Below the pieces are notes generated by a model. The model ran no database searches and was not told the DNA's origin. It saw nothing but the letters and a program-made list of their open reading frames with translations. Of a stretch of DNA of 64,000 nt, positions 15,380 through 62,886 are shown in pieces. Position 1 is the stretch's first letter. Every line of letters starts with the position of its first letter. Where the stretch lies: positions 15,996 to 79,995 of the IMG/VR virus record IMGVR_UViG_3300037041_001083. One strand, 5' to 3'. The position numbers and the translations under genes are program-made. The stretch is from a virus.

Positions 15380-17014
15380 TTACGTTATATTGATATTTCC
15401 TGAGTTAATACGAGCTAAATAACCGTCAGCTATTATCACATTGTCTGATGGTGTTGATATTGTTACTTCACGCACACCACGCACAAAACAAAGTGATAAT
15501 ATTTTGTGTTGAACAACACTATTTCCAATACCAAGACCGTTTATATAACTGAGGATGCTTTGCGTAATTTCAGTGACTACTTCTTCCTGTGGACGCAAGC
15601 CATCCAGCGTAATATTTCCAACAACATTGATATAATTTACCAATGGATTGCGAACCTGCACCCAACCGCCCAAACCTACAGCACCCGGCCAAGCATCTCT
15701 ATTGTCACGGTCGCCATATATCGCCTTATTAACTCCAGCAATTAATCCTGTGTAATACCTGATTGCGGTTATCTCTAGGTGATCGTTAGGCTCCAATGGT
15801 GAGTTTAAGCGGATGCATCCATAGTCAGGTGCAACCTGATATTCTTCTGCTGCTGTTCCTTGCACCATCGGAACACTATTTTTTTCAATAGTGATATTTG
15901 AAAACACATATGCAGCATTTTCCACCGGAGTACACACGATTGGTGTTTTGGCTCTTGGTACAAAAAAGTGATCCTCACCACCAATAGCTGAATCAATCAA
16001 TAATATAGGTGATGCTAAATCCTCTTGCGTTGGAGTAAATGCAGCCCCGTCATCAATATAAAGCATCGACGGTAAAGTAGGCGAAGGGTCTTCAACAACT
16101 TGTGCGAATACTGCCTTTTGTCCTTCATTGTTTACAATGTAAGTTTGCTCATAAATAGCATCCACTGTTGCTGTACTTAATGACTGTCTGTGCCGCCTTA
16201 TCCTTGCTCGAACCTCAACATCGCTTTCAACTGAACGAGCATTAGATAGTGCTGAATCATTGTAAGTTTTTGATGTCGTAAAAGGTGCTGTACCAATGAA
16301 ATCAAGGATTGTCTGGCTTGGAGTATTACCGGATGGGCCACCTACTTGTGCCGTAATATCCATTGTTCCAAGCTTCTCTCCATCATAAATAACCAATGGA
16401 GTAACTGAGGTGTACAATTTTTTTGCACTACTACTGGAGGCTCTTGTTGCTACTGTAAACGGCCCCGGATAAGTCCTATCACCAACCGTAACCAACACAA
16501 TCGTTTCACTCGCTGCATGGTCATATTGCAGCGCAGAGGTAGGATTGAATTGAATTGAAGTTTTACTGGTGTAAGTAACGTATTCAAAATTTATTGAGCC
16601 ACGAGTTCCGATTATCAAAGTTCCAGAAGCAGGAAAACCCGCTGTGCTTGAAGCATTTATAAATTGTTGTCCAGTTATCGCACCACCAGCCGAAATAACC
16701 GTGGACACCTTTGTAAGTGCCGTATCCTCGACTGTCTGCGCTCCTGTTGCATATGTTGCTTGGAACCTTGGGAGCATATCAGGATATTCGCTTATGGCTT
16801 TATCAAGCTGACTTCCACTCATTGTTTCCAAGTTTAATAATGAAAGAGCATTAATAGCTTCCTGATATAAAACGTACATTTGATCCGCTATCGCTACTGC
16901 CATGTTATCCAGCACTGTACCTAACTCCGAACTCGTGAGAGTAGACATTGCTTTCATGGTTGTTGTTATATCTAAATACATTTCCGACCGAGTTCTTGGT
17001 ATAAATGCTGGCAT
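15380..17014 (-). CDS. Baseplate J/gp47-like wedge protein
   Basis: SGSQLD...R..AT.A.G, GGPSGN, ESDVEVRARI, YINGLGIGNSV motifs. Confidence 0.85.
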   Translation of the reverse strand: MPAFIPRTRSEMYLDITTTMKAMSTLTSSELGTVLDNMAVAIADQMYVLYQEAINALSLLNLETMSGSQLDKAISEYPDMLPRFQATYATGAQTVEDTALTKVSTVISAGGAITGQQFINASSTAGFPASGTLIIGTRGSINFEYVTYTSKTSIQFNPTSALQYDHAASETIVLVTVGDRTYPGPFTVATRASSSSAKKLYTSVTPLVIYDGEKLGTMDITAQVGGPSGNTPSQTILDFIGTAPFTTSKTYNDSALSNARSVESDVEVRARIRRHRQSLSTATVDAIYEQTYIVNNEGQKAVFAQVVEDPSPTLPSMLYIDDGAAFTPTQEDLASPILLIDSAIGGEDHFFVPRAKTPIVCTPVENAAYVFSNITIEKNSVPMVQGTAAEEYQVAPDYGCIRLNSPLEPNDHLEITAIRYYTGLIAGVNKAIYGDRDNRDAWPGAVGLGGWVQVRNPLVNYINVVGNITLDGLRPQEEVVTEITQSILSYINGLGIGNSVVQHKILSLCFVRGVREVTISTPSDNVIIADGYLARINSGNINIT

Positions 17015-49979: not shown

Positions 49980-50708
49980 TTAATCCTTGTCAGGCATGTG
50001 AGGTAGTCCACGGACTTTCTTAGGCTTCAAAATATGGTGGATTACGAACTTCATTTTTTTAACAAATGTTGGACGCTGAAAAGCCTTAGCAATCCCTCTG
50101 CCTGTGCGCTTTTGCAACAACTGGTGCATTTTTTTACAGCACTCACAGTTTTCCTCTGTGCAGTTTTTCAAGTGTTCATGGGCTGATAATAATATCGCTT
50201 TATGATTTGCAGCTTCGTGTGGATTCTGAGGCAAATGCATCATTCCTTCATGGAACATTGCTGCTCCATTACTTCGGTGATATTCGTCACATTCAGCCTT
50301 TTTCACCATGCCAATCATGCGCCACTCTGAACATTTGCAGTTGGTATGGACTGCGCCTTTAAGGTGGTCAGGAACCATACCAGCAGCCCACACACGAGGA
50401 CTCTTAGGCGATCCAAAGGCATGTAGGCAAGCTTCGCAAGCATCACCAGTTATCCGAACCACCTGCGCCCGTCTGCCATATTTTTCGATAATGGCATCAA
50501 ACGATTGGGTAGCATTGGCATCAGTCAGCTCAGTACGAGCTACTGACTTCCAATTTCGGGTGTCTCGCTTCGTAGGAGTGTTTGCGAGTCGCTTGAGTTG
50601 GCCTGATAGGTACTCCATAGTCCAGTGCTTATCTCGTGCTTGTTGCACAAGGTCAGCAACCTTTTCCTTGCGATGCTCGCCCATATGCGTGATTTTCTCT
50701 ATCGGCAT
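49980..50708 (-). CDS. MuF/SPP1 gp7-like minor head protein
   Basis: W..VARTE...ACEAC...HTNCKC. Confidence 0.7.
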   Translation of the reverse strand: MPIEKITHMGEHRKEKVADLVQQARDKHWTMEYLSGQLKRLANTPTKRDTRNWKSVARTELTDANATQSFDAIIEKYGRRAQVVRITGDACEACLHAFGSPKSPRVWAAGMVPDHLKGAVHTNCKCSEWRMIGMVKKAECDEYHRSNGAAMFHEGMMHLPQNPHEAANHKAILLSAHEHLKNCTEENCECCKKMHQLLQKRTGRGIAKAFQRPTFVKKMKFVIHHILKPKKVRGLPHMPDKD

Positions 50709-53422
50709 CCAAACCTCCTCATCAACATTTTGGACTGCAACTTGAACGCAACAACATTATTTCCCGAAGCTTTATCCATGATTGATTTTCTTATTGCGCC
50801 CTTGCTTTGCATTGGTACTTCGATAAAGGATAACTTTTTCTTGGGTCGAGTGTATGCCACATACTCAACATTTCGTTCCTGCTGGACTTGATCGGGAGTT
50901 TTCGCACGACCTCGTGCTTTATCAAACAAGTCTCTATTCAAAATATAAACATTATCAGCCTCAAGCCCTTTGCACTTGTGGACACTGGATAAACGAACAA
51001 TTCCCTTGGTGTTTTCTTCGGCAAACATAGTTTCAATTTCCGCAACAATACCTTCAGGTGTTCCAGCTTTTGTATTGTCGATAAAAGTCATCACTGACTC
51101 ATATCTGTCATCAATATGGTCAACGGATGCATCCTCATGTTTACGTTTAATTTTCGCCTTTTCATGGTCAGCCCATGTATCAAGCTTGTTTACTAATTCA
51201 GGTATTGTTCTGGCTTTTAATTTCCTAATTAGTGATGCAATTCCTTTACCAATATCCCTACCTAACATTTTGCAAGGTATTCTGTCTTTCAATAACGAAT
51301 AGGTTAGCTTGACTAATGGAGCATTGTTACGACAAATAATCATATCATTTGGTAAAAAATCACCATTTTTAAAACCAACACCTTTTTCTTCGGTAACACC
51401 TTCAATGGCCCACGGCGCAACTTCAATGTGTCGTACCAATGGTTTCGCATATTCATTAATTACGCTCTTAGGACAGCGATAACATATGGACAGCGGTATT
51501 TCAGTTGCATTAAATGTTTTTACAGCCCTACTAATTCCTTTTGTATCAGCACCACTAAATCCATAAATACTCTGATAAGGATCGCCTACTCCAATAAACC
51601 TACCATTAGGAGCAAGCATTTTTGTTAATAACTTATGTTGTAATGAATTTAGGTCTTGGCAATTATGTACCAATATTCCATTAGCGTAAAAGTTATGATT
51701 ATCTTCTATGGTTAAGTCGTAAACATAATAATCTTTTAATGTATATGGTTCAACTGATTCAACAATACCTTCAGTCGGACAATCATCACCATCTATGCAC
51801 ATATTCATTTCTTGTGCAATTTTTTCAGCATTACTAAAAGCAAAACTATTACTGTACCGATATACTTTCCATCCTATTGATTGAAGGAACTCTTCTTTCT
51901 TTTTATCCTGTTCCTTACGCATGTTGTGTCTTCCACCATCAACTTCAATAGCAATCATTCTATCTGGATTAGCTATGTCAACTTTATATGCTGTTGGATA
52001 GCCGAGTCCTTTTTTAACCTTTGTAGGAATAGCATATTCAGCAATCCATCCTTCTCCTAATTCATCAAGTAGTACTTGCTGAGGAATGGTCAGTCCTGTT
52101 CCATTTCCACCTCTAATATTTTCAGTAATTGTACCTCTCCAATTACTCCTTTCCTGAAATTCAGGAGTTTCATTTTTACTACTCATTATTTCAGATAGCT
52201 TTTTCTTTCCTTCAGCACCAATTTTAAATGCTTGAGTTGTAGCAGCCAATGATTCAACTTGCATTTTCATTCCCGGATTTACTAATCCAGCTTCAATCCA
52301 TTCTTCATTAGCCCAAACTTTATGGTCAGTAGTGCAAACAAGTATATTGGTTTTGTTGTTATGCCCAATACGTTCACGACCATTTTCTATCCATTTATAC
52401 TCTTTTCTCCATTTTACCCTAATCCTAACCAATGGTTTCCTATTTAATGTTTTACTCCACTTGGTTATTTTTTTAGTTTCTTGTTCTCCAGTTTCAGTAT
52501 TATATGTAATCACTTTACCAGTAATATGCTCATCAACAATTTGTCCTATCGGCAAACTACTTCCATCTGCCATTAAAATTGGAGTTTGATAAGGCAAACA
52601 TTCATCACAAAACAAAAATTTGTATTGTGGCATTTTAATGTTATTTATCAATGGTAAATAAATCATATCGGCAAAATCCACGACATCGTGATGTTTGTTA
52701 CTTTCTGTTAATATTGCTCGTGCATTTTCAATGATCGTATCGTCATCAAAATCTTCGGAAAAATCAATGTTGAAATTTTGCATTAAATGTATCCAATTTT
52801 CCGGTGTATCTTCCATAATTCCATTTTTGTTTCCCGGAACCAATCCATGTATTTTTGCCTTTTGAACCAAATCGCTTAGTGCAAATTTCATTGACATGTC
52901 TTTAGGACTTAATCTTTCACTTATCAGGTTCAATACCTTGTAATTATCAACTTGAACTTTACCAGCAAATGAACGCCATGCTGCAAATCCCTCAGCGTGC
53001 ATTGTCTTGGCTGGCAATCCTCGTGAACTTAATTCAGTTTCAATATGTTTGTTAAATGCTAAAAATCTTGTGTTCATTTTGTCTTCTGGACTTAACAAAT
53101 CAAATGCCATTTCAATGGTACTGGATTTACCGCTTCCCGAAACAGCATCTACTAAGCAATTTCCCTTGCCATATTTAATGAATTTGAACACGGCCATCTG
53201 GTACTTGCTAGGAGTCCTGCCATCGAGCTTTGGTATTAGTTTAAGGTCAACGTCAGGCAATGCTTCTACCTCGGCTGGGATTGGCGTTTTCGAGGTATTT
53301 TCAGTGGTAATTGCCTGTGCGATGGTCTTGGGTTGCATTTCCTTTGCGGTAGGCTCAGGGTCGGCAACAACCTCGTTTGCAGTTGCGGCACTCTCATCTA
53401 ACTTCGCTATCGTAGTATTCAC
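50699..53422 (-). CDS. UvrD/Rep SF1 helicase containing an intein
   Basis: AVSGSGKS, DE|CQD, VGDPYQSIYGF, YRCP, SSVHKCKGLE, YVAYTR. Confidence 0.9.
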   Translation of the reverse strand: MNTTIAKLDESAATANEVVADPEPTAKEMQPKTIAQAITTENTSKTPIPAEVEALPDVDLKLIPKLDGRTPSKYQMAVFKFIKYGKGNCLVDAVSGSGKSSTIEMAFDLLSPEDKMNTRFLAFNKHIETELSSRGLPAKTMHAEGFAAWRSFAGKVQVDNYKVLNLISERLSPKDMSMKFALSDLVQKAKIHGLVPGNKNGIMEDTPENWIHLMQNFNIDFSEDFDDDTIIENARAILTESNKHHDVVDFADMIYLPLINNIKMPQYKFLFCDECLPYQTPILMADGSSLPIGQIVDEHITGKVITYNTETGEQETKKITKWSKTLNRKPLVRIRVKWRKEYKWIENGRERIGHNNKTNILVCTTDHKVWANEEWIEAGLVNPGMKMQVESLAATTQAFKIGAEGKKKLSEIMSSKNETPEFQERSNWRGTITENIRGGNGTGLTIPQQVLLDELGEGWIAEYAIPTKVKKGLGYPTAYKVDIANPDRMIAIEVDGGRHNMRKEQDKKKEEFLQSIGWKVYRYSNSFAFSNAEKIAQEMNMCIDGDDCPTEGIVESVEPYTLKDYYVYDLTIEDNHNFYANGILVHNCQDLNSLQHKLLTKMLAPNGRFIGVGDPYQSIYGFSGADTKGISRAVKTFNATEIPLSICYRCPKSVINEYAKPLVRHIEVAPWAIEGVTEEKGVGFKNGDFLPNDMIICRNNAPLVKLTYSLLKDRIPCKMLGRDIGKGIASLIRKLKARTIPELVNKLDTWADHEKAKIKRKHEDASVDHIDDRYESVMTFIDNTKAGTPEGIVAEIETMFAEENTKGIVRLSSVHKCKGLEADNVYILNRDLFDKARGRAKTPDQVQQERNVEYVAYTRPKKKLSFIEVPMQSKGAIRKSIMDKASGNNVVAFKLQSKMLMRRFGCR
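51662..52600 (-). mobile_element. Intein (313 aa) with in-frame Vsr/DUF559-type endonuclease
   Basis: Starts CLPYQTPILMADG, has block B CTTDHK, ends YVYDLTIEDNHNFYANGILVHN|C. Internal KVDIA...IEVDGGRH...D..KEEFL...GWKVYR. Confidence 0.92.
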
Positions 53423-54393
53423 TTGTCGTTCCCCTTCGTGCGTTCCATGAACATCGCAATGACTTTCTTTCGTTCCACCGGATGTACTGGATACTTGCTA
53501 AAAATATCGTCAAACTTCGCATCCAATGCGTGTTTGTTTTCTGGTTGCAAATAAACGTCAAGGTATTTGTTCCGCAGGAGTTCGTCAACTATTTTGTTCA
53601 AATAGTTTTCATTGTGGATTGGCACTAATTCCCATTTCTTCACTTCCTCGTCGGTTAGCTCGTGGTCGTACTCCACTACACCGTGACGAATCATTGCGTC
53701 CTTGTCTTCCATTTTTTCATCAGGATTGTAGCTGATATATCCGGGCTTAACTGCACCTACTCCAGCAGGTCGTAATCGCATACCGTATTTAAAAGTTTTC
53801 TGTGTAGGTATTACCGATGTTTCAGGCAAGCCTCGCACTGGTTTGGGAGCTGGAGGTTCAGCGATGCCTCTGGTTGCAATCGGCGTAGGTTCGGATGGTG
53901 GAGGAGCAAATGGTTTGTGCGCTGCGGTGATGCCTCTGGATACTGGTTTGGGTTCAGCACTTAAACTGGGTTTAACTTCCACAGGCACATGCTTGGCCTC
54001 AGCTCTCATCTTGGCAACCACAGCCTCAACCATAGCCACATGGTCAGCATCAGGAGCTTCACCGTAGGTTTTTTTCCACTCTCGCCAATACTTTTTATTG
54101 TCACCATGATGAAACAACGCATGAATATCCTCAAGCGTTTCATCCTTAACCTGATTCTTGGTTTCCTCGTCAGCGTCAGCCCAGCCTTCGATGTTCAGCT
54201 TGTTCAGCTCGTGGTCAAGCTCTTTGGCAGGATCAACCTTCGTGGATGCGTGGGTGTAGTTCGGTAGGTGTTTCCACTCACCACCAATTTTTTGATACCA
54301 ACCATCGGCTCTGCGAACGATTGTACCTGCTGGGAGTTCCTTGGCCTTCATCACGATGCCACGATTTGCTGGTTTGCCAAAAGTAAATTTCAT
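53419..54393 (-). CDS. Modular protein with a DarA C-terminal-like domain
   Basis: YGMRLRPAGVGAVKPG...RHGVVEYDHELTDEEVKKWELVP resembles the DarA_C pattern. It also carries the shared leader and the W..W.K.YG.AP module. Confidence 0.6.
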   Translation of the reverse strand: MKFTFGKPANRGIVMKAKELPAGTIVRRADGWYQKIGGEWKHLPNYTHASTKVDPAKELDHELNKLNIEGWADADEETKNQVKDETLEDIHALFHHGDNKKYWREWKKTYGEAPDADHVAMVEAVVAKMRAEAKHVPVEVKPSLSAEPKPVSRGITAAHKPFAPPPSEPTPIATRGIAEPPAPKPVRGLPETSVIPTQKTFKYGMRLRPAGVGAVKPGYISYNPDEKMEDKDAMIRHGVVEYDHELTDEEVKKWELVPIHNENYLNKIVDELLRNKYLDVYLQPENKHALDAKFDDIFSKYPVHPVERKKVIAMFMERTKGNDK

Positions 54394-54451: not shown

Positions 54452-56041
54452 TTATTTGCCTTGCATTTTTGACCTTACATTTGCCTGTGTATTTCCGGTT
54501 TCTTTACCTATTTTCCATTCTAATTCAAATATTGCCGTACCTTCACGATTGTATCGGTTCATATCGCTCATGGTGGAATTTGGCCTCATAACTGTTCTAT
54601 CTTCGTACATATCCTTTAGTTTTTGATATTCAGGATGCTTGGTAATATCACCTGTTTTTGAAGTTTTAACTTCCTCTTGCACAGGTTTTTTCACTACATA
54701 CTTGGCATTTGATACTGGTTTTTGTGAATTTCTGCTCTCAACTTCGTTATCGTGCGATGTTGCTTTTGCTTTTGCCCCTTCACGAAAAGGAGTAAATTCT
54801 AATGGCTCTGAGTCATCCATTGAATCAGGAACATTTGTTACACTATCCCATGAATTATTGCCTACAAATTTTTTTGCACTTTTTATATCATTATCTGATA
54901 TATGCTTTTTAAGTTTTTGAGCCATATATTTATGTAAAGCTTCCATTGAATTTTGGTCGCCAGCTTCTCCACCATAATATCCTTGACCAAAATTGCCTGC
55001 TGCTTGATGTGCAAAATGATGATGTAAATAAGCATCCTCTGGATTTTCATGTGACTCATCATCCGCTAATCGTGCAACATGTTCAGGTAATATATTGTAC
55101 TTACTAATATAATGACGAAGTAATGGGTTTATTTTTTCTCCGGCTGCAAATTTATGTGTTTTAGCATATTCAGTTGCATTTTTTACTTCTTCACGACTAT
55201 GCCCCTTAAATGGCAATATTTGTCGAGCATCATCAGGATTACGCATAAGTTGATCGTCACGATGGATTTTTACTTTCTCGTATCGTTCCATACCACGTTT
55301 GGTAGGTTTTGCGCCTTCCTTTACCATTTGCTTTAATTCATCCAAATGCCTGTCTAGGTGCTTACAAGTGCCACCGTGATACTTACAAGCAGGACACTCG
55401 CAAGTCCATTTACCACTGGCTTTATGCTGGCCTATCACATAGTCTTTGCCGCTATCACCTTCAACAACAAATCTATTGGTGTGATTTTTGCCTTCTCCAA
55501 TCGGATCAATCATTTTGCCATGCGGTTTTATTTTCGGTGAAACCTTGAAGGTTTTTCGAGGTGCAGCTACTTCCTTGACTGGCTCTTGCTTTTCCTTTTC
55601 CTTTGGCTTGACGACAAACTTAGGAGCTGGTTCGCCAGCCTCCTCAGCCTTGTTTCTTTGTTTGGTACGTTGTGCTGGATTAGGAACGCCATGCGCCTGA
55701 ATGATCCTCTCATGTGCTGAATGGACGACTGACTTATGTGCGCTTGCCGGAGCACCACCGTATTTTTTCGCCCAGTCTCCCCAAAACTCAGCTTTACTTT
55801 GTCCACCCAAATGTACTTTTTTATGAAATGCTTCAATATCCTCGTGGGTTTCATTCATTGTTTCTTTACTAATATCCTTGGGGTCAAGGTTATGTTGTGC
55901 CAGCGCAGCATTGAGGTGTTTCTGGGCTTCAACACGAGTCCATTTGCCACCAGTTTGCTTTTCAAACATGCCTATTTTCCACTTGCGTTTCTCGCCAACC
56001 TGAGCTGCTTTAGCCTTAAACAAATTGAATAAAAATTTCAT
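54452..56041 (-). CDS. Modular SWIM zinc-finger protein
   Basis: VEGDSGKDYVI...WTCECPACKYHGGTCKH matches SWIM CxCx(n)CxH; shared leader and module are present. Confidence 0.7.
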   Translation of the reverse strand: MKFLFNLFKAKAAQVGEKRKWKIGMFEKQTGGKWTRVEAQKHLNAALAQHNLDPKDISKETMNETHEDIEAFHKKVHLGGQSKAEFWGDWAKKYGGAPASAHKSVVHSAHERIIQAHGVPNPAQRTKQRNKAEEAGEPAPKFVVKPKEKEKQEPVKEVAAPRKTFKVSPKIKPHGKMIDPIGEGKNHTNRFVVEGDSGKDYVIGQHKASGKWTCECPACKYHGGTCKHLDRHLDELKQMVKEGAKPTKRGMERYEKVKIHRDDQLMRNPDDARQILPFKGHSREEVKNATEYAKTHKFAAGEKINPLLRHYISKYNILPEHVARLADDESHENPEDAYLHHHFAHQAAGNFGQGYYGGEAGDQNSMEALHKYMAQKLKKHISDNDIKSAKKFVGNNSWDSVTNVPDSMDDSEPLEFTPFREGAKAKATSHDNEVESRNSQKPVSNAKYVVKKPVQEEVKTSKTGDITKHPEYQKLKDMYEDRTVMRPNSTMSDMNRYNREGTAIFELEWKIGKETGNTQANVRSKMQGK

Positions 56042-59000
56042 TTCTTCCCCCTACTATTTAAAACTTGAGCAGCCCGTTCAACCACAGCCTTGTGTTCGTC
56101 GTCTGGTGCGCCACCGTATTGTTTTGCCCACTTTTTCCAGTATGCTTGAGCGTTACCGCCCTTGTCAGTATGCGATACAAAAGCTTTCAAATCATCCTCA
56201 GTCTCTTTAATCACACTAGCGTCTAAATCCGCATATCCTGCTTCACTTAAAACTTTACTTAATGCGGTGGTTAAATCGGATGTTTTTTCAATAGCTGGTT
56301 TTTGAACTCCACGATTCTGAACTAATTTATCATGTATCGCATGGGTTTTTTCAGGCTTTTTTGCTGAGTCCAAATTTGGACTGTGTGACTTTTCCTCTTT
56401 AGGAGGCAACCTTTTATCGTGCTTGTGTTCAACGTACTGGTCAGGCAAATCAGGATGCTTTTTCTTCACTGATTTTGCATATGCTGCAAAGGCTTCCTCG
56501 TCCTTAGCTAAGTGAGTCAGGTGAGCATCCCTCTTACCTTTACCAGCAGCCTTCAAATGCCGCACAGCAGCGTTCCAATGCTTTTTTGCCAGCCCTTTAT
56601 TCTCGCTTGAGGCATGGTGCGCTGCGTGGCGCAAATGGTGTTCAGCGGCAGCATTATTCTCATCGGCAGTCAGCGGTTCCGTACTTGATGAACTAGGTGC
56701 TTGATCTCCATTCTCCGGAGTAATTTTGGTTTTAACTTCCGGTTTTTCCTCAGCTTTTTTTTCAGGAGCTTTACTTGATGGCTTCTTGATAGTTTCCGCT
56801 GTGTCGTCACGTTTGCTTACAACAGCATCAGCTTTGGGTTCCTCGCCCATTGTTGCATACATTTTACCGCTGGCTTTCTGGGAGCCGGGAAGTAAGCTAG
56901 GCGAATGTTTTTTGTAATTGCTATCACCATACATCGCATGTACTTTTTTGTTTTCTCGCTTTTGATAGTCAAGCACAGCCTTACCAACTTGCTCATATTC
57001 AGGCAACAAATCAGCACTTCGGTTATTTCTCATGTTATCAACGCTCATTTTGAACGCTGTAAATCCCGGCACTTCGTCATAGTCCGAGGTAACTTTCATG
57101 TTTGAATTATGTCGGCTTGCAAGTCTGGCATACTTAGTTACGTCCAGTGTACGGTCACTGATACCAACATGGATTTTGACAGGCTTATCCTGTCCAAAAC
57201 GCCATATTCTACCATACGATTGTTCGGTTTCACCCGGAGTCCAGCCAAGGTCATAGCGATACATGCCATTTGCCATCTGCATGTTCACGCCTTCCTTAAT
57301 TGACTCGTCACAGGCAACAATAATTTGTGGGCCATTTTTGTCCTTGGTATCTAGGAATGGTTCAAGCCCTTCCTTGTGACTTCCATCGTAATAAACGGCC
57401 ATTTTTTTAAGTTCAGGTGGCAAATTGTCAAATACATGTCTGGCACTGTTGATACGCTTGGTAAACACGATAAATTTACCATTTTTAGGATCAGCGAAAT
57501 GTTCCTTCATTTTTGCGTATGCGTCTTTGGCCTTCGCTGATACTTCACCGTCGAGGTTCAAAATGGCTTTTAAGGTTTGTGGTCGAAATTTTTGCAAAAA
57601 CTTCTGAGCCTGTTTTACTGGCTTGGCAAGCTCCGGCCCCTCCTCCTCGCCTTCTTCACCGTCATATCCTTTTTTCCAAGCATCAGGATTGTAGCTGTAG
57701 TCAACTCCAGCTTTATCGCAAACATCCTTGAAAGCTTTTACCTTCTTTGAATATTCATTTGGGTGGTCAACGATACCAGTCAGCGTGTTTATGGCATCAA
57801 TTACCTTGCCAGTGGGGTTTTCCTCATCCTCTTGCTCATCAGGATCACCTTGAAGCTTTCGCAACTCAGCAGCTACCTTGGGATCGGTGTCAGCGAGTTG
57901 TTGAATAGCATCCATAGCATCTGTGATGGCTGATTCATTCGCCAAGGCCTGTTTTGGCTCCATGTGAACCACGGAAGTTTTTTCATCACGCTCTGGTAAT
58001 AAGTGCATCCAATTTGTTCGGCGAATGGAAATGAAACCCTTGGCAAGCAAATCCTCTCGGAGCTGCTTTACGCCTTTGTCGCTCCATGTGTAGCCAGCCT
58101 TGGATTTTGTGAAACCGTATTGTTTGGCAAAATCATCGAGGTTCTGAGTACGTCCGGGATATAACCACGACATTTGCCCAACTACGTCAGCAGGGTCTTT
58201 GGATATAAATGTACCTGTTGCCAGCCTTTTGTAAGCTGCACCACTGAAATATTGCAATGCAATATGTCGGCCACTATCAGGGTTTTTTACCTTCTGGCAA
58301 TTATGTACTAGGACACCGTTGATACTGTAGGAAGGGTGACCTGCAACTCCAATATCGTAGTAACGACCCTCTGGGTTTCGTTCATCACTTCCTGATTCGT
58401 AAACCTCAACATTGTCCACCCTAAAGCACTCAATACTTCCTTTTTCTTTAAATCTTGCGCTTTCCTTGCGAGTAATTGGTGTGAGTAACCGTCGCACTCC
58501 ACGCACAGTTTCTTCACTGGAAATGCTAAGTCCGGCTTGTATGCCGCTGCTATCCCCGGCCTCCTCTTGCCAGTAGATATTGCTAAATTCCACACCCAAC
58601 CATTTCCCAATGCTTCCATTAACAATGCCTCTGGTTTCGTCATTCCCGTTCCATTGCCCATGCGAATTGGAGGTTTGTGACCTATTTTCTTCAATGTCCG
58701 AGTCATTTTCATCCGTGTTTTTAAATTGCTCATCGGATTTTTCTCGTTCATCCGTTTTGCAGCCCAAGGCTTTTCCATTCCTAAATGTGCTTCCGATATT
58801 TTCCTGCTTACTTCCTCGTTGTACATTTTCTCTCGTATTGATGGTTGAGTCATCCGCCATTTCGCTGAACAGGATGTGCCGCAAAAACGATTCTTGTTCG
58901 TTCCTTTCTGAAGATATTTTAGTTGAAATTCCTTCATGCACCATTCGCATCGCTTCACTTGTGTTGACAAGCCAATCTCCCTCAATAATATCCTTTGCCA

Positions 59001-60393
59001 TTACCCAACCACTCGGAGTAAGCCAAGGATGATTCAATGAACATTTTATTTCTTGCCCATTGAATCTTAATCTTATGTGCTTGTCGAGTTGCTTATTGCT
59101 AGTGCTTATTACTGGCATTTCTCCACTTGCACTTTTTACCATGTCACCAATTTTAATTTCAGCAATTCGCTTGGTAGTCCCATCAGCCATGTCAATCAAA
59201 GTATCTGGATGAAAACACTCATCCAAACTCACAAGGTCAAAATCCCCTCCCGCCAACGCTTGCGCTCGCAAATAATGCTTTGTGGGATCGGGTTCATTCT
59301 CAGCACCGTGATTGTGGGAAATAAAGTCATAGCTGGTGGTGAAAATGGTATTTGGTGGAGCATTTTTAATATCCTCAACCAATTTTTCCATGTCTCCCTT
59401 GTAATGGTTGTTTACTAAGTCACCATCAATGACAAATACGTTCATTTTGTTGTCGGTATATTCGAGTATTTTCTTAGCATTTTGATGCAGCGTCATGTTT
59501 GTAGCAACAATTAAAGGTCGTTTGACCTTACCTTGAGCCATTAAATTTATTGCATCAAATGGTAGAAGTAAACCTTTACCACCGCCCATATCAACGTCAA
59601 CAATAGCCTTGGTCATCTTGTTAAGTTTAGCAAGCACCTCAGCTTGATGCGGAAACAGCTCAATTTTACTGCTGGTTGAAGGAATATCAGGGCAATCTTG
59701 AGGTCGCAGGTGCATTGCTTGCAGGTTTATCATTTCCTGTTTTTCCCAATGCTCCTTAGCAGCCTCACCGTGTTCAGTCGCCATTCTTGCTTCGGCTTTT
59801 TCGTGGTAGTCAGCTTCGGGTGAGTTATAAATTGCCTTGTACAATTCAGCATGATCGGACTTGGTAGCAAACTCTGTTGCGCCCTTTTTTTTAAGTTTTT
59901 TGAGTTTGGGCTTTATTTCGTTTTCAGTAATCCAGTCTCGCATATCCTTCACTGTTTCAAGCGCAGGTTCCTCACCATTTGCTTTTGCATCTTCTTTGTG
60001 ATCGTGGAGGTATGATTGCAATACTTTGTTCACATCGTGGCTATCAACTGGATTTGTGCCTTCAAACTCATCACGAGTTTCTGGCCTATATTTCCAGTGT
60101 TTCCACATATGCGCTTCGTCGATAGGTGTGGTTTGTCCGAGGTAGTTGTAAATATCCTCGTTCTTCATTTCATCCTGTGGAGTGTGCTTATACGTTTTAA
60201 GCTGTCCATTATGAATAACGGACGTATGATGTTCATCAGCAGAAACAAACTTGTTTTTATATGCCGCAGGATTTTGTTCAGCATCTTTTCTGCTATCCCT
60301 ATATTCATCAATATGAATGATTTTACCATTGGGAAGCTTGCGATAGTGTGCGGTTACTTTGGCTTTTTTAATCCAATCAAACATTCTTACCAT
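56038..60393 (-). CDS. SNF2-family helicase containing an intein
   Basis: LFPHQ, DMGGGKG, DE|CQ, ATGT, KFIVFT, EGVNMQ, WTPG..EQSYGRIWRFGQ. Confidence 0.85.
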   Translation of the reverse strand: MVRMFDWIKKAKVTAHYRKLPNGKIIHIDEYRDSRKDAEQNPAAYKNKFVSADEHHTSVIHNGQLKTYKHTPQDEMKNEDIYNYLGQTTPIDEAHMWKHWKYRPETRDEFEGTNPVDSHDVNKVLQSYLHDHKEDAKANGEEPALETVKDMRDWITENEIKPKLKKLKKKGATEFATKSDHAELYKAIYNSPEADYHEKAEARMATEHGEAAKEHWEKQEMINLQAMHLRPQDCPDIPSTSSKIELFPHQAEVLAKLNKMTKAIVDVDMGGGKGLLLPFDAINLMAQGKVKRPLIVATNMTLHQNAKKILEYTDNKMNVFVIDGDLVNNHYKGDMEKLVEDIKNAPPNTIFTTSYDFISHNHGAENEPDPTKHYLRAQALAGGDFDLVSLDECFHPDTLIDMADGTTKRIAEIKIGDMVKSASGEMPVISTSNKQLDKHIRLRFNGQEIKCSLNHPWLTPSGWVMAKDIIEGDWLVNTSEAMRMVHEGISTKISSERNEQESFLRHILFSEMADDSTINTRENVQRGSKQENIGSTFRNGKALGCKTDEREKSDEQFKNTDENDSDIEENRSQTSNSHGQWNGNDETRGIVNGSIGKWLGVEFSNIYWQEEAGDSSGIQAGLSISSEETVRGVRRLLTPITRKESARFKEKGSIECFRVDNVEVYESGSDERNPEGRYYDIGVAGHPSYSINGVLVHNCQKVKNPDSGRHIALQYFSGAAYKRLATGTFISKDPADVVGQMSWLYPGRTQNLDDFAKQYGFTKSKAGYTWSDKGVKQLREDLLAKGFISIRRTNWMHLLPERDEKTSVVHMEPKQALANESAITDAMDAIQQLADTDPKVAAELRKLQGDPDEQEDEENPTGKVIDAINTLTGIVDHPNEYSKKVKAFKDVCDKAGVDYSYNPDAWKKGYDGEEGEEEGPELAKPVKQAQKFLQKFRPQTLKAILNLDGEVSAKAKDAYAKMKEHFADPKNGKFIVFTKRINSARHVFDNLPPELKKMAVYYDGSHKEGLEPFLDTKDKNGPQIIVACDESIKEGVNMQMANGMYRYDLGWTPGETEQSYGRIWRFGQDKPVKIHVGISDRTLDVTKYARLASRHNSNMKVTSDYDEVPGFTAFKMSVDNMRNNRSADLLPEYEQVGKAVLDYQKRENKKVHAMYGDSNYKKHSPSLLPGSQKASGKMYATMGEEPKADAVVSKRDDTAETIKKPSSKAPEKKAEEKPEVKTKITPENGDQAPSSSSTEPLTADENNAAAEHHLRHAAHHASSENKGLAKKHWNAAVRHLKAAGKGKRDAHLTHLAKDEEAFAAYAKSVKKKHPDLPDQYVEHKHDKRLPPKEEKSHSPNLDSAKKPEKTHAIHDKLVQNRGVQKPAIEKTSDLTTALSKVLSEAGYADLDASVIKETEDDLKAFVSHTDKGGNAQAYWKKWAKQYGGAPDDEHKAVVERAAQVLNSRGKK
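58300..59217 (-). mobile_element. Intein (306 aa) in SNF2 Walker B
   Basis: Starts CFHPDTLIDMADG, has block B CSLNHPWLTPSGW, ends YYDIGVAGHPSYSINGVLVHN|C. Confidence 0.92.
58308..58985 (-). CDS. Overprinted Vsr/DUF559-type endonuclease in the +1 frame inside the intein
   Basis: CEWC...FCGTSC zinc finger, a NUMOD3-like RKISEAHLG and YKPDLAF...VECDGYSH...D..K..VL...GW..LRFTN. Candidate start is the TTG at 58970 after GAGGGAG. Confidence 0.8.
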   Translation of the reverse strand: MREIGLSTQVKRCEWCMKEFQLKYLQKGTNKNRFCGTSCSAKWRMTQPSIREKMYNEEVSRKISEAHLGMEKPWAAKRMNEKNPMSNLKTRMKMTRTLKKIGHKPPIRMGNGTGMTKPEALLMEALGNGWVWNLAISTGKRRPGIAAAYKPDLAFPVKKLCVECDGYSHQLLARKAQDLKKKEVLSALGWTMLRFTNQEVMNETQRVVTTILELQVTLPTVSTVS

Positions 60394-60592: not shown

Positions 60593-60972
60593 GGAGTCAC
60601 CTCGATAGTGAAAAGCTCTCGCATGTAAGGCCAAATGAGTATTGCGCCAGTATCAGGGTCACTTACCTCAAAACTCATCATAAAGTAGCCAGCGTCTTGA
60701 GTATCAACTGGATGCCATTTATGCCGAATAAGCCCTTTGGTTGCGTCAATAACCTCAGTGATACCTTGCACCACATGTTCAGGCTGGTTACGCCCACAAC
60801 CGTACATCTTGGCTTTTACGGTCATGCCAGTTAGGTCGATTGGTTCCTCATTGGTTACTGGAGGGCAAGGGTAAAATGATTGTTCCCAAGGAATCGGTCT
60901 GCCTGATTTTGTAAGCACCAGCTCAAGCCAAGGTGCAGTAGCTACCCTTCGGATTTGGAACGCAGCAATCAT
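60589..60972 (-). CDS. BppU-like Ig-fold virion protein
   Basis: PIDLTGMTV...IDATKG.I...W...DT..AG...F.V pattern; ATGA coupled to the cold-shock gene. Confidence 0.6.
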   Translation of the reverse strand: MIAAFQIRRVATAPWLELVLTKSGRPIPWEQSFYPCPPVTNEEPIDLTGMTVKAKMYGCGRNQPEHVVQGITEVIDATKGLIRHKWHPVDTQDAGYFMMSFEVSDPDTGAILIWPYMRELFTIEVTP

Positions 60973-61241
60973 GGTGTAAACCTCTGAATTAGTTTTATAT
61001 CCACAGCACATATGCCGTTACGGTTAGTGCTAAATGCAAACTCAACGATGTCATTTATCTGTAATGTTTTAAAACCAGCTTGAACAATGCTGTGATAGTG
61101 GCAAAATATATCCTTGCCATTATTCAACTCAGTATCGTCAGCCTTGACGAAACCATATCCAAGATTGGCATTAAACCAAACAACTTTTCCACGATACCGT
61201 TTGTCACTCTCAGGTTCAGAACGGTGGTTTGCCAAATTCAT
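60969..61241 (-). CDS. Cold-shock domain protein
   Basis: GKVVWFN..LGYGFV (RNP1), DIFCHY (RNP2), GFKTL...VEF; ATG at 61241 after GGAGG. Confidence 0.9.
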   Translation of the reverse strand: MNLANHRSEPESDKRYRGKVVWFNANLGYGFVKADDTELNNGKDIFCHYHSIVQAGFKTLQINDIVEFAFSTNRNGICAVDIKLIQRFTP

Positions 61242-62886
61242 TTTCTTGTCCTCCTGCGCCAGCTTGACCGCCCTGTTGCTGCTGTTGTTGACCCTGCTGC
61301 TGCATTTGCTGTTGTTGCTGTTCTTGTAATTGTTTTTGCTGGTTTGCAGCCTGTATGAATGGATTTGCGATAATGTTACCGCCAGCTTCATCGTCAATTT
61401 CTTCCATGCCACACATTTTGCGCTGCTCATTTACAGTGATAAATGTTGCTTTTGATACAGCTAAATCAATAACTTCTTTCTCACTTTTTCCGTAATCCCA
61501 TTCCATTGTGAGGTCAGGATCAATACGACGTAAAATCGGATCAAAAATGTGAGTCTTGAAGTGATTGAGCGAGGTTTCAAGTCCTTGCTCCTGCGCCATG
61601 CTGATTTGAGTTTCTTGGTTTGCACCTTGAAGCGCACCCTTGTTATCGCCAGCCCTCGGAGCTTCGTTGATTTCTGATGGATGCATACTGAATACTGCAC
61701 AGGCTAAGTTAGTCAGCTTTTGAACATAAAAGTCGAATAACATATCCTTGTGATTTTGTCGTAATTGATGCACAGCTAAGTCTTGAGCATCAGGCAAAGC
61801 CAATAAAGGCACCTTGAACATACCGTCGATGCCGCTCATGTTTGCTTGCAGGATATTAGTTAGGTCTACAACGTGTTTATCGTCGTAACTACCCTTCATT
61901 GCCAACAATACTTCTGTCATGTTTCCGGTTTGGAAATACTTGAGGTTTGCGCTCATTGCCATAATTTCAGCAAGGATGCAAAAAATTGCTTTCTCAGTCA
62001 GTGATCGTGGGTATCCGGCGAACCGAACATCGGTGCTGGGTAAAAATGGAGCAACGATCAATCTGCCAGTTGGGAACGTGCGAACAGGTTTTCCACCCAT
62101 TAAGTAAATATACTCAGTCTCATCAGTAATATCTATTTGATAATGGTCACTAAGCTGTTGCATGATAGCCTTCATGCCAGTGTAATTTTCTTGCCAACTT
62201 GTGTCGGTTGATAAACGAGCTTTTGTGGTCAAATACTTGATTGCCGAAAAGGTTGGGATGACATTTGCACCATCAATAGCACCAAAGGCTCTTGGAGTGC
62301 CGTACATATCAAGGCCAAGCTCAATTACTGGCCTATTTATGACTAAATGATCCTCCATTATCTTAGCCATGAAGTCGTCCAAATTAGGCTCAATATCCTG
62401 AAAAACTACGCCTTCGTTCCAATACACGTTCCAAGGCGATAGCATCATTTCTTCGGCTTCCCTGCACAGGTTTTTGTAACCGTCAGGAACAGTGAACCCC
62501 TCCTCGCCGTGTCGTCTGTGCATCACTCGAAAGCCTACTTCGCCATGAGTTGACTTACGGGCAACCTTGGCAAAGCGTGTGCATTGAAATTGGCGTTTGG
62601 ACACAATAGCTGCCAGCAGACTCGAGCGTTCGGCAATTTGCCTCAGCAGCGTGAAGCTTACTGTACCTCTGGCACTGTTGGTTCCAGCGTAGCCCTTTTG
62701 GTAGCCACCATAGTAACTCGAACCGCCATAAGCTTGTTCGGGCAATCTGGGAGCCGATGGAGTCATACCAAGGGATAAGTATTTTAAAACGTCACCAAAG
62801 CCTAACCTTCCCTCGCTACCTTCTCTGGCTCGCTTATCGAGTTCGGCTGGTGTTGGAACTTTTCGATTAACTTCATTTTTAGCCAT
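61216..62886 (-). CDS. Portal protein
   Basis: Follows the terminase; AIDGANV, YFQ.G, DM.F......CAVF.MHPSEI, S.EQGL..L, TVNE.R motifs; Gln-rich tail. Confidence 0.85.
   Translation of the reverse strand: MAKNEVNRKVPTPAELDKRAREGSEGRLGFGDVLKYLSLGMTPSAPRLPEQAYGGSSYYGGYQKGYAGTNSARGTVSFTLLRQIAERSSLLAAIVSKRQFQCTRFAKVARKSTHGEVGFRVMHRRHGEEGFTVPDGYKNLCREAEEMMLSPWNVYWNEGVVFQDIEPNLDDFMAKIMEDHLVINRPVIELGLDMYGTPRAFGAIDGANVIPTFSAIKYLTTKARLSTDTSWQENYTGMKAIMQQLSDHYQIDITDETEYIYLMGGKPVRTFPTGRLIVAPFLPSTDVRFAGYPRSLTEKAIFCILAEIMAMSANLKYFQTGNMTEVLLAMKGSYDDKHVVDLTNILQANMSGIDGMFKVPLLALPDAQDLAVHQLRQNHKDMLFDFYVQKLTNLACAVFSMHPSEINEAPRAGDNKGALQGANQETQISMAQEQGLETSLNHFKTHIFDPILRRIDPDLTMEWDYGKSEKEVIDLAVSKATFITVNEQRKMCGMEEIDDEAGGNIIANPFIQAANQQKQLQEQQQQQMQQQGQQQQQQGGQAGAGGQENEFGKPPF

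Follow-up and report, generated by a model that had tools for sequence, protein, structure and literature searches.

The window analysed here is a 64,000-nucleotide (nt) stretch of a virus record in IMG/VR (IMGVR_UViG_3300037041_001083, positions 15,996 to 79,995), and our subject is a helicase gene on its minus strand (56038..60393) that is interrupted by an intein (59217..58300), within whose coding sequence a second gene, encoding a predicted homing endonuclease, is read in the +1 frame (58308..58970). An earlier note on this DNA had proposed such a dual-coding intein, and upon re-reading the sequence, the coordinates and frames it gave for the host open reading frame (ORF), the intein and the +1 ORF were all correct. 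The host ORF encodes 1451 amino acids (aa) and matches the Pfam families Helicase_C and ResIII. We assign it to the SNF2-like SF2 helicases because an intein-free homologue on another viral contig (L093:2271-5582) matches SNF2-rel_dom (E = 3.8e-16) and aligns at the insertion site. At that site the homologue reads FDYVALDE and continues directly with AHNIKN, leaving the motif uninterrupted; it is 41% identical to the C-extein and has the same N-terminal architecture. It represents a natural "empty site" for the intein element.

The insertion is a contiguous class-1 intein of 306 aa (C393..N698), with a cysteine at its first position, a terminal HN and a cysteine at +1, and it sits after the Walker-B/motif II residues LDE. 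Its splicing ends are normal, as had been claimed: the intein begins with CFHPDT, carries SLNHP as block B, and ends in RYYDIGVAGHPSYSINGVLVHN (VLVHN, followed by C699), after which the C-extein resumes with CQKVKN. Residue C1, the block B histidine H63, H305 and N306 are invariant among 64 aligned family inteins, and the block F/G sequence YDIGVAGHPSYSINGVLVHN is kept across loci when the alignment is anchored at the intein end. The Pfam families Intein_splicing, PT-HINT and Hint match at both ends of the host-frame product, below cutoff. The N-terminal splicing part (58843..59217, minus strand; intein residues 1-125) contains blocks A and B and was modelled by AlphaFold2 (AF2) with a predicted local distance difference test score (pLDDT) of 96-98 for residues 1-90 and 59-91 for residues 91-130; its last ~40 codons overlap the start and the zinc finger of the nuclease gene. 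The C-terminal splicing part (58300..58440, minus strand; residues 260-306) contains blocks F and G and reaches a pLDDT of 90-97. In the host-frame model, two beta-rich parts, residues 1-125 and 260-306, flank a disordered middle and are predicted to form a Hint fold together.

Between them lies a stop-free, hydrophilic spacer (58444..58842, minus strand; residues 126-258) with a pLDDT of 43-55 and no Pfam match. The middle of the intein had been described as ~180 featureless residues. It is indeed the case that the host frame matched no nuclease motif, only the Hint/intein ends, but the featureless region itself measures ~133 aa. The spacer, predicted to be disordered, is what results when the nuclease gene is read as a passenger in the host frame, and the only constraint detectable on it is that stops are absent. 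Selection for a hydrophilic spacer was considered and rejected: the mean Kyte-Doolittle value is -1.10, against -1.28 predicted by the register (mean z = +1.2), and since the hydrophilicity is thus no greater than the register yields, it is a by-product of the register.

In the +1 frame, one base further on, the intein's nucleotides also contain a nested gene on the minus strand (58308..58970), encoding 220 aa from the TTG at 58970 (or 225 aa from the TTG at 58985) and ending with a TAG at 58310..58308. The +1 frame is open from stop to stop for 690 nt (59000..58311) and the host frame has no stop across it, in agreement with the ~680 nt of double openness first noticed. The nuclease TAG ends 8 nt short of the last intein base. 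Profile hidden Markov model searches of the two frames, suggested as a check, split them as predicted, Hint being matched in the host frame and DUF559 in the +1 frame (PF04480, covering residues 143-213 in P0002 numbering; score 47 bits, cutoff 20.6, E = 2.6e-12). Full-length homologues in the protein collection are 230-280 aa long and 38-46% identical to the +1 product, a range that widens to 38-55% across all homologue sets. The product retains every family-invariant residue, namely the cysteines of CxxC and SCSxK together with Y149, K150, D152, E163, D165, G166, H169, D178 and K181 (P0002 numbering). The EDxHD catalytic residues E163, D165, H169 and D178 are invariant columns, as are D152 and K181, and this was confirmed in a 61-sequence alignment.

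Two modules of the product can be placed on the minus strand. The N-terminal module (58869..58949) is zinc-finger-like, with the CxxC...CxxxC pattern reported for it in the earlier note (C8, C11, C30 and C34, counted from TTG 58970); its cysteines are invariant or nearly so, and its pLDDT is 79-97. The C-terminal module (58347..58660) is a Vsr-like/EDxHD (DUF559) catalytic domain, supported by Pfam, profile and Foldseek matches, in which the D, E, D, G, H, D and K residues are invariant or nearly so; here too the domain named beforehand was borne out, with the invariant residues kept and a Vsr-like predicted fold. The AF2 model of the nuclease, built from the 61-sequence alignment, has a mean pLDDT of 91.9. 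The family profile matches PDB 3HRL at 1.4e-14 and 3R3P (I-Bth0305I) at 2.6e-3, and the top Foldseek matches of the model are 3HRL (a DUF559 protein), 3R3P and 1VSR (E. coli Vsr), with probabilities of 0.87-1.00, target template-modelling (TM) scores of 0.40-0.68 and E-values of only 5e-3 to 0.1. A NUMOD3-like helix, by contrast, found no support from Pfam: NUMOD3 had no match at E <= 0.1 in the +1 product, in which that claim corresponds to predicted helices only. On these grounds of conservation and predicted fold, the nested ORF appears to be a real nuclease gene.

Several homologues in the protein database (P0005-P0011) have been gene-called with long N-terminal extensions and with tails such as ISxTLxxHGI. 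The tail matches the +1 read-out of intein block F, and the extensions are probably passenger translation of an intein, not genuine nuclease sequence.

The double openness of the locus is far from what the nuclease protein alone would give. When the protein was held fixed and its synonymous codons were redrawn 20,000 times from the phage's own usage, 16.3 stops were expected in the host frame where none is observed, and no redraw reached zero (the minimum was 4). The reciprocal resampling test gave P = 1.5e-4. In the rest of the helicase gene, the +1 frame contains 59 stops, and its longest open stretch is 70 codons.

Substitutions among relatives reveal which frame is held. In four locus pairs at 73-76% nucleotide identity, simple counts place 183, 180 and 325 differences on nuclease codon positions 1, 2 and 3, respectively, and this third-position excess is the signature of purifying selection on the nuclease frame that had been foreseen. 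Over shared bases, amino-acid identity averaged across all pairs comes to 0.40 for the nuclease frame against 0.22 for the host frame; between the window and its relative L003, the values are 0.56 and 0.38. The nuclease frame is under purifying selection, and this selection dominates in the middle of the element. At the 3' end the roles are reversed, with blocks F/G strongly conserved once anchored on the intein end, and the nuclease tail (ISxTL..HGI in relatives, ILELQVTLPTVSTVS in the window) is largely a +1 read-out of these blocks. Between these two regions, an overlay of the two AF2 models points to a zone of ~35 codons (58335..58439, minus strand) in which both frames give confidently modelled folds, corresponding to nuclease residues 178-212 (the last strand and the C-terminal helices) and to intein residues 260-295 (the first C-terminal strands).

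The same arrangement recurs well beyond this phage. A megablast of the helicase gene against the phage collection gave no match, and a scan of viral contigs with the single protein P0002 gave none either; a scan of IMG/VR with the family alignment as query did find relatives, 232 in number, of which 80 were kept. At 78 of these 80 viral loci, the nuclease frame is open for 180-357 aa, and the frame two bases on, which is the register of the window, is stop-free and belongs to an ORF of 489-3396 aa. The overprinted layout and its register are likewise found in all ten relatives (L083-L092) of a second nuclease of the same phage, which resides in an intein of a UvrD-like helicase gene, and an identical layout is seen in 20 of 20 relatives on contigs of bacterial and archaeal metagenome-assembled genomes (MAGs). 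The expectation that homologous inteins would keep the +1 ORF thus holds in all three sets. The long frame of the viral loci carries intein blocks F/G, and the nuclease stop falls 8, 11, 20, 23, 44 or 50 nt before the extein; all aligned inteins start with CF..(D/G)T immediately after a Walker-B-like hhhDE. The two exceptions among the 80 (L037, 4821-5660, and L048, 4956-5636) are free-standing genes with no intein blocks in any surrounding frame. They may serve as an outgroup to root the nested forms.

Across 73 distinct family ORFs, T occupies the third codon position at 0 of 4,315 junctions where it would be prone to create a host stop, compared with 24.9% elsewhere. This T frequency predicts ~1,120 host-frame stops, and none is seen; selection keeps the host frame open, and with so many stops missing, read-through of the host frame must therefore matter. 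The constancy of the register has a possible explanation in the genetic code. With the nuclease in the +1 frame of the host, a host stop can arise only where a T in the third position of a nuclease codon precedes AA, AG or GA, and because no dipeptide forces such a stop, every one of them can be removed synonymously. In the other sense register, a TGA is unavoidable wherever Met precedes I, K, M, N or T; the window nuclease would incur seven such stops, and the family mean is 2.4. The synonymous removability of host stops would account for the invariant register.

As for expression of the nested gene, a Shine-Dalgarno (SD)-like sequence, GAGGGAG, lies within the intein codons E-G-D (58983..58977, minus strand), 6 nt upstream of the TTG at 58970. 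This spacing, like the nuclease stop 8 nt before the intein end, can be seen in the sequence as it had been described. The combination of GGAG, 6 nt and TTG, placed seven codons ahead of CxxC, is common to the nearest relatives (L003, L004, L005, L017 and L039). A scan of 58200..59400 for promoters and terminators returned chance-level numbers (3 against 2.3 expected, and 1 against 0.9), and the RNA fold around the SD and TTG was no different from that of shuffled sequences (z = -0.44).

Very probably, the locus is a mobile intein whose homing endonuclease is encoded by a gene of its own, overprinted on the intein. We infer independent translation, splicing, cleavage and homing along the following lines. 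The helicase would be translated straight through the intein, whose ends would form the Hint splicing domain around a disordered, stop-free loop of ~133 residues, and splicing would join LDE to CQKVKN, restoring helicase motif II. Ribosomes starting at the TTG at 58970, inside the intein coding sequence and under the control of the gene's own SD (GAGGGAG), would read the DNA one base later and produce the 220-aa nuclease, with its zinc-finger module, helical region and EDxHD/Vsr-like catalytic domain. This nuclease would presumably cut intein-free alleles at sites in which DE is followed by (A/C/S)(H/Q)xxKN, thereby driving homing, and keeping the host frame open would cost the nuclease protein nothing. 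Both intein-bearing (the window and L003) and intein-free (L093) homologues exist. Between the window and L003, the two intein parts are 65% and 60% identical, the nuclease 56% and the exteins 46%; the higher identity of the intein than of the exteins is compatible with horizontal spread, without being proof of it.

Other accounts of the two frames have to be weighed. Internal SD sequences are known stimulators of ribosomal frameshifting, for example in prfB, and the nuclease might accordingly be made as a fusion by programmed +1 frameshifting, with the SD-like sequence acting as a stimulator and not as a ribosome-binding site. Such a scheme would suit two frames that overlap on one strand with GAGGGAG just upstream, as well as the many family members that lack a clear SD before the start codon. 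However, the +1 frame runs into a stop just five codons upstream of TTG 58985, many loci are open for only 2-13 codons ahead of CxxC and start with ATG, free-standing family members exist (L037, L048 and P0004), and a slippery site was not identified. Because the +1 frame is closed just upstream, independent initiation is likelier than a frameshift fusion, which we hold to be very unlikely. The +1 ORF could instead be a recently disabled relic, put out of frame by two compensating indels and no longer expressed, while the intein survives as a de facto mini-intein. This phage does have a related nuclease domain in frame, in the intein of its UvrD-like helicase, which lends the idea some appeal, yet more than 100 loci share the out-of-frame state, at 33-55% amino-acid identity, with ORFs intact and catalytic residues invariant, and the substitutions favour nuclease codon position 3. 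Moreover, the nuclease frame cannot be restored by simple indels, because the nuclease 3' end overlaps intein block F. We consider a relic of this kind highly improbable.

An artefact, in which paired indel errors of sequencing or assembly created an apparent second frame, deserves thought for a record that is a metagenome-assembled contig and for which a single run was found, probably the one it was assembled from. The check for indels proposed in the earlier note nevertheless speaks against it: a separately built contig from that probable source run, at a depth of ~27x, is identical over 58000..59500 with no indels, and more than 100 unrelated assemblies show this two-frame layout as well, so that virtually no probability remains for this account. 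The helicase might also be a fractured gene with a split intein, made as two polypeptides that splice in trans, in which case the open host frame would be irrelevant. The fractured genes of Dassa et al. 2009 do hold the same nuclease family between their halves, with a similar overlap of 6-69 bp between the nuclease 3' end and the C-intein. Here, however, the host frame runs without a stop across the nuclease gene, whereas a terminated host frame defines that class, and the ~1,120 stops expected across the family are absent; a start codon or SD for a separate C-intein was not seen, and none was sought. We regard a split intein as extremely improbable.

A contiguous intein with a separately encoded nuclease remains our preferred reading, and several points weigh against it. 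The Pfam Intein_splicing match covers both intein ends, but it scores 26.8-30.6 bits against a gathering cutoff of 35.8, a score that is lowered because the insert is long. The start codon would be a TTG, and many family members have no recognisable SD. The positional counts come from just four moderately diverged pairs and are simple tallies. The run behind the assembly check is probably the source sample and hence not an independent one. Finally, the phage is represented by an uncultured sediment-metagenome contig, from which translation, splicing and cleavage are deduced.

The concept of an out-of-frame intein nuclease is already published. As cited in later papers, Gorbalenya 1998 proposed that inteins can carry endonuclease genes in alternative reading frames or in antisense orientation. 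Among actinobacteriophages, Gosselin, Arsenault & Gogarten (bioRxiv 10.1101/2025.01.02.630785) described non-canonical inteins with antisense LAGLIDADG, antisense VSR-like and frame-3 EndoVII-like genes, called them rare (63 of 784 inteins), and suggested as their origin the invasion of an intein by a free-standing endonuclease gene. Like the element in the window, these are contiguous, apparently functional inteins with the endonuclease in another frame, and VSR-like (EDxHD) enzymes are among them. In our family, however, the VSR-like gene lies on the sense strand and always in +1, whereas theirs is antisense and only the EndoVII-like one is sense ("frame 3"); and the layout, rare among their inteins, is the norm in our family, which counts more than 100 loci at Walker-B DE sites. 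The cyanobacterial dnaX intein, with its out-of-frame LAGLIDADG endonuclease (Phillips, DeSimone & Gogarten, bioRxiv 10.64898/2026.09.14.751524; also Gorbalenya 1998, as cited), likewise has an overlapping ORF in a contiguous intein, with the endonuclease frame under purifying selection and the intein frame relaxed in the overlap, but it differs in nuclease type, cellular host and register.

The fractured genes, in which a free-standing Vsr-like endonuclease gene lies between the halves of a split intein (Dassa et al. 2009, PMC2677866), share with the window the nuclease family, a place in phage DNA-metabolism genes, the strand, and the overlap of the nuclease 3' end with the C-intein coding region. 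They have a terminated host frame, a non-coding gap of 27-51 nt before the nuclease and a split intein, whereas the host frame of the window is open across the whole nuclease gene and its intein is contiguous. I-Bth0305I, the prototype among EDxHD homing endonucleases, has been characterised experimentally, and its cleavage adjoining the insertion site has been shown (Taylor et al. 2011, PMC3239194; PDB 3R3P). It resembles the predicted nuclease in its Vsr-like catalytic domain with E, D, H and D, in its N-terminal DNA-binding region and in the fold and profile match; unlike the nuclease of the window, it is encoded in a group I intron and is not overprinted, and the sequence identity is ~20%. 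A full-text literature search found no description of a sense-strand +1 Vsr/EDxHD gene in a contiguous intein, nor of this layout being the norm throughout a large family that inserts at Walker-B sites. The form described here extends and generalises the known work.

The second intein of this phage offers a comparison within one genome. It lies on the minus strand at ~52600..51662, in the UvrD-like helicase ORF 50699..53422, inserted between FCDE and C, and here Intein_splicing scores above the Pfam cutoff. It contains a DUF559/EDxHD domain in frame (E = 1.7e-9) with the catalytic residues intact, but the zinc-finger half is missing, and a profile search through all six frames of the window turned up no remnant of it for this intein. 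In tblastn alignments, its N-Hint, nuclease and C-Hint align to frames 3, 1 and 3, respectively, of the ten nearest relatives (L083-L092), and by parsimony its in-frame state appears to be derived. Dassa et al. (step IIIa, PMC2677866) and Gosselin et al. (bioRxiv 10.1101/2025.01.02.630785) only hypothesised a transition to this state, and no mention of in-frame Vsr-like intein domains was found in the intein-endonuclease literature that we compared.

Around the helicase gene, three adjacent minus-strand proteins share the motif ED(I/L)xAF...(Y/F)WxxWxKxYGxAPxxxHxxxV, for which there is no Pfam or PHROG assignment: the C-terminus of the SNF2-like helicase (56038..56200), a 529-aa ORF (54452..56041) and a 324-aa ORF (53419..54393). 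The shared motif may represent a common interaction or docking module. Directly upstream of the helicase, also on the minus strand, lie a cold-shock-domain-like protein (60969..61430; phrog_729, 1.3e-11) and a portal protein (61216..62886; phrog_11117, 9.9e-12); as listed, these two ORFs overlap by ~215 nt.

These observations illustrate how an intein can conceal an entire gene. Standard gene callers list the long helicase ORF alone, so that in more than 100 phage and MAG sequences the nuclease family lacks an annotation. Its constant register is given a simple quantitative reason, in that host-frame stops are synonymously removable in +1, and nested and in-frame forms are available for direct comparison in a single genome. 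Compact, separately expressed EDxHD nucleases and inteins that tolerate a disordered insert of ~130 residues may prove to be of use. The results support the origin of intein endonuclease domains from invading free-standing genes. We tentatively suggest, as a possibility that we ourselves hold with some doubt, that register-locked (+1), sense-strand zinc-finger/EDxHD overprinting marks a large, unannotated class of mobile elements that target the Walker-B DE of helicases and ATPases in phages and prophages, and that this phage holds two of its evolutionary stages, the nested form in the SNF2-like gene and a rare in-frame derivative without the zinc finger in the UvrD-like gene. If so, the phage would provide a snapshot of canonical in-frame intein endonuclease domains arising from invading free-standing genes.

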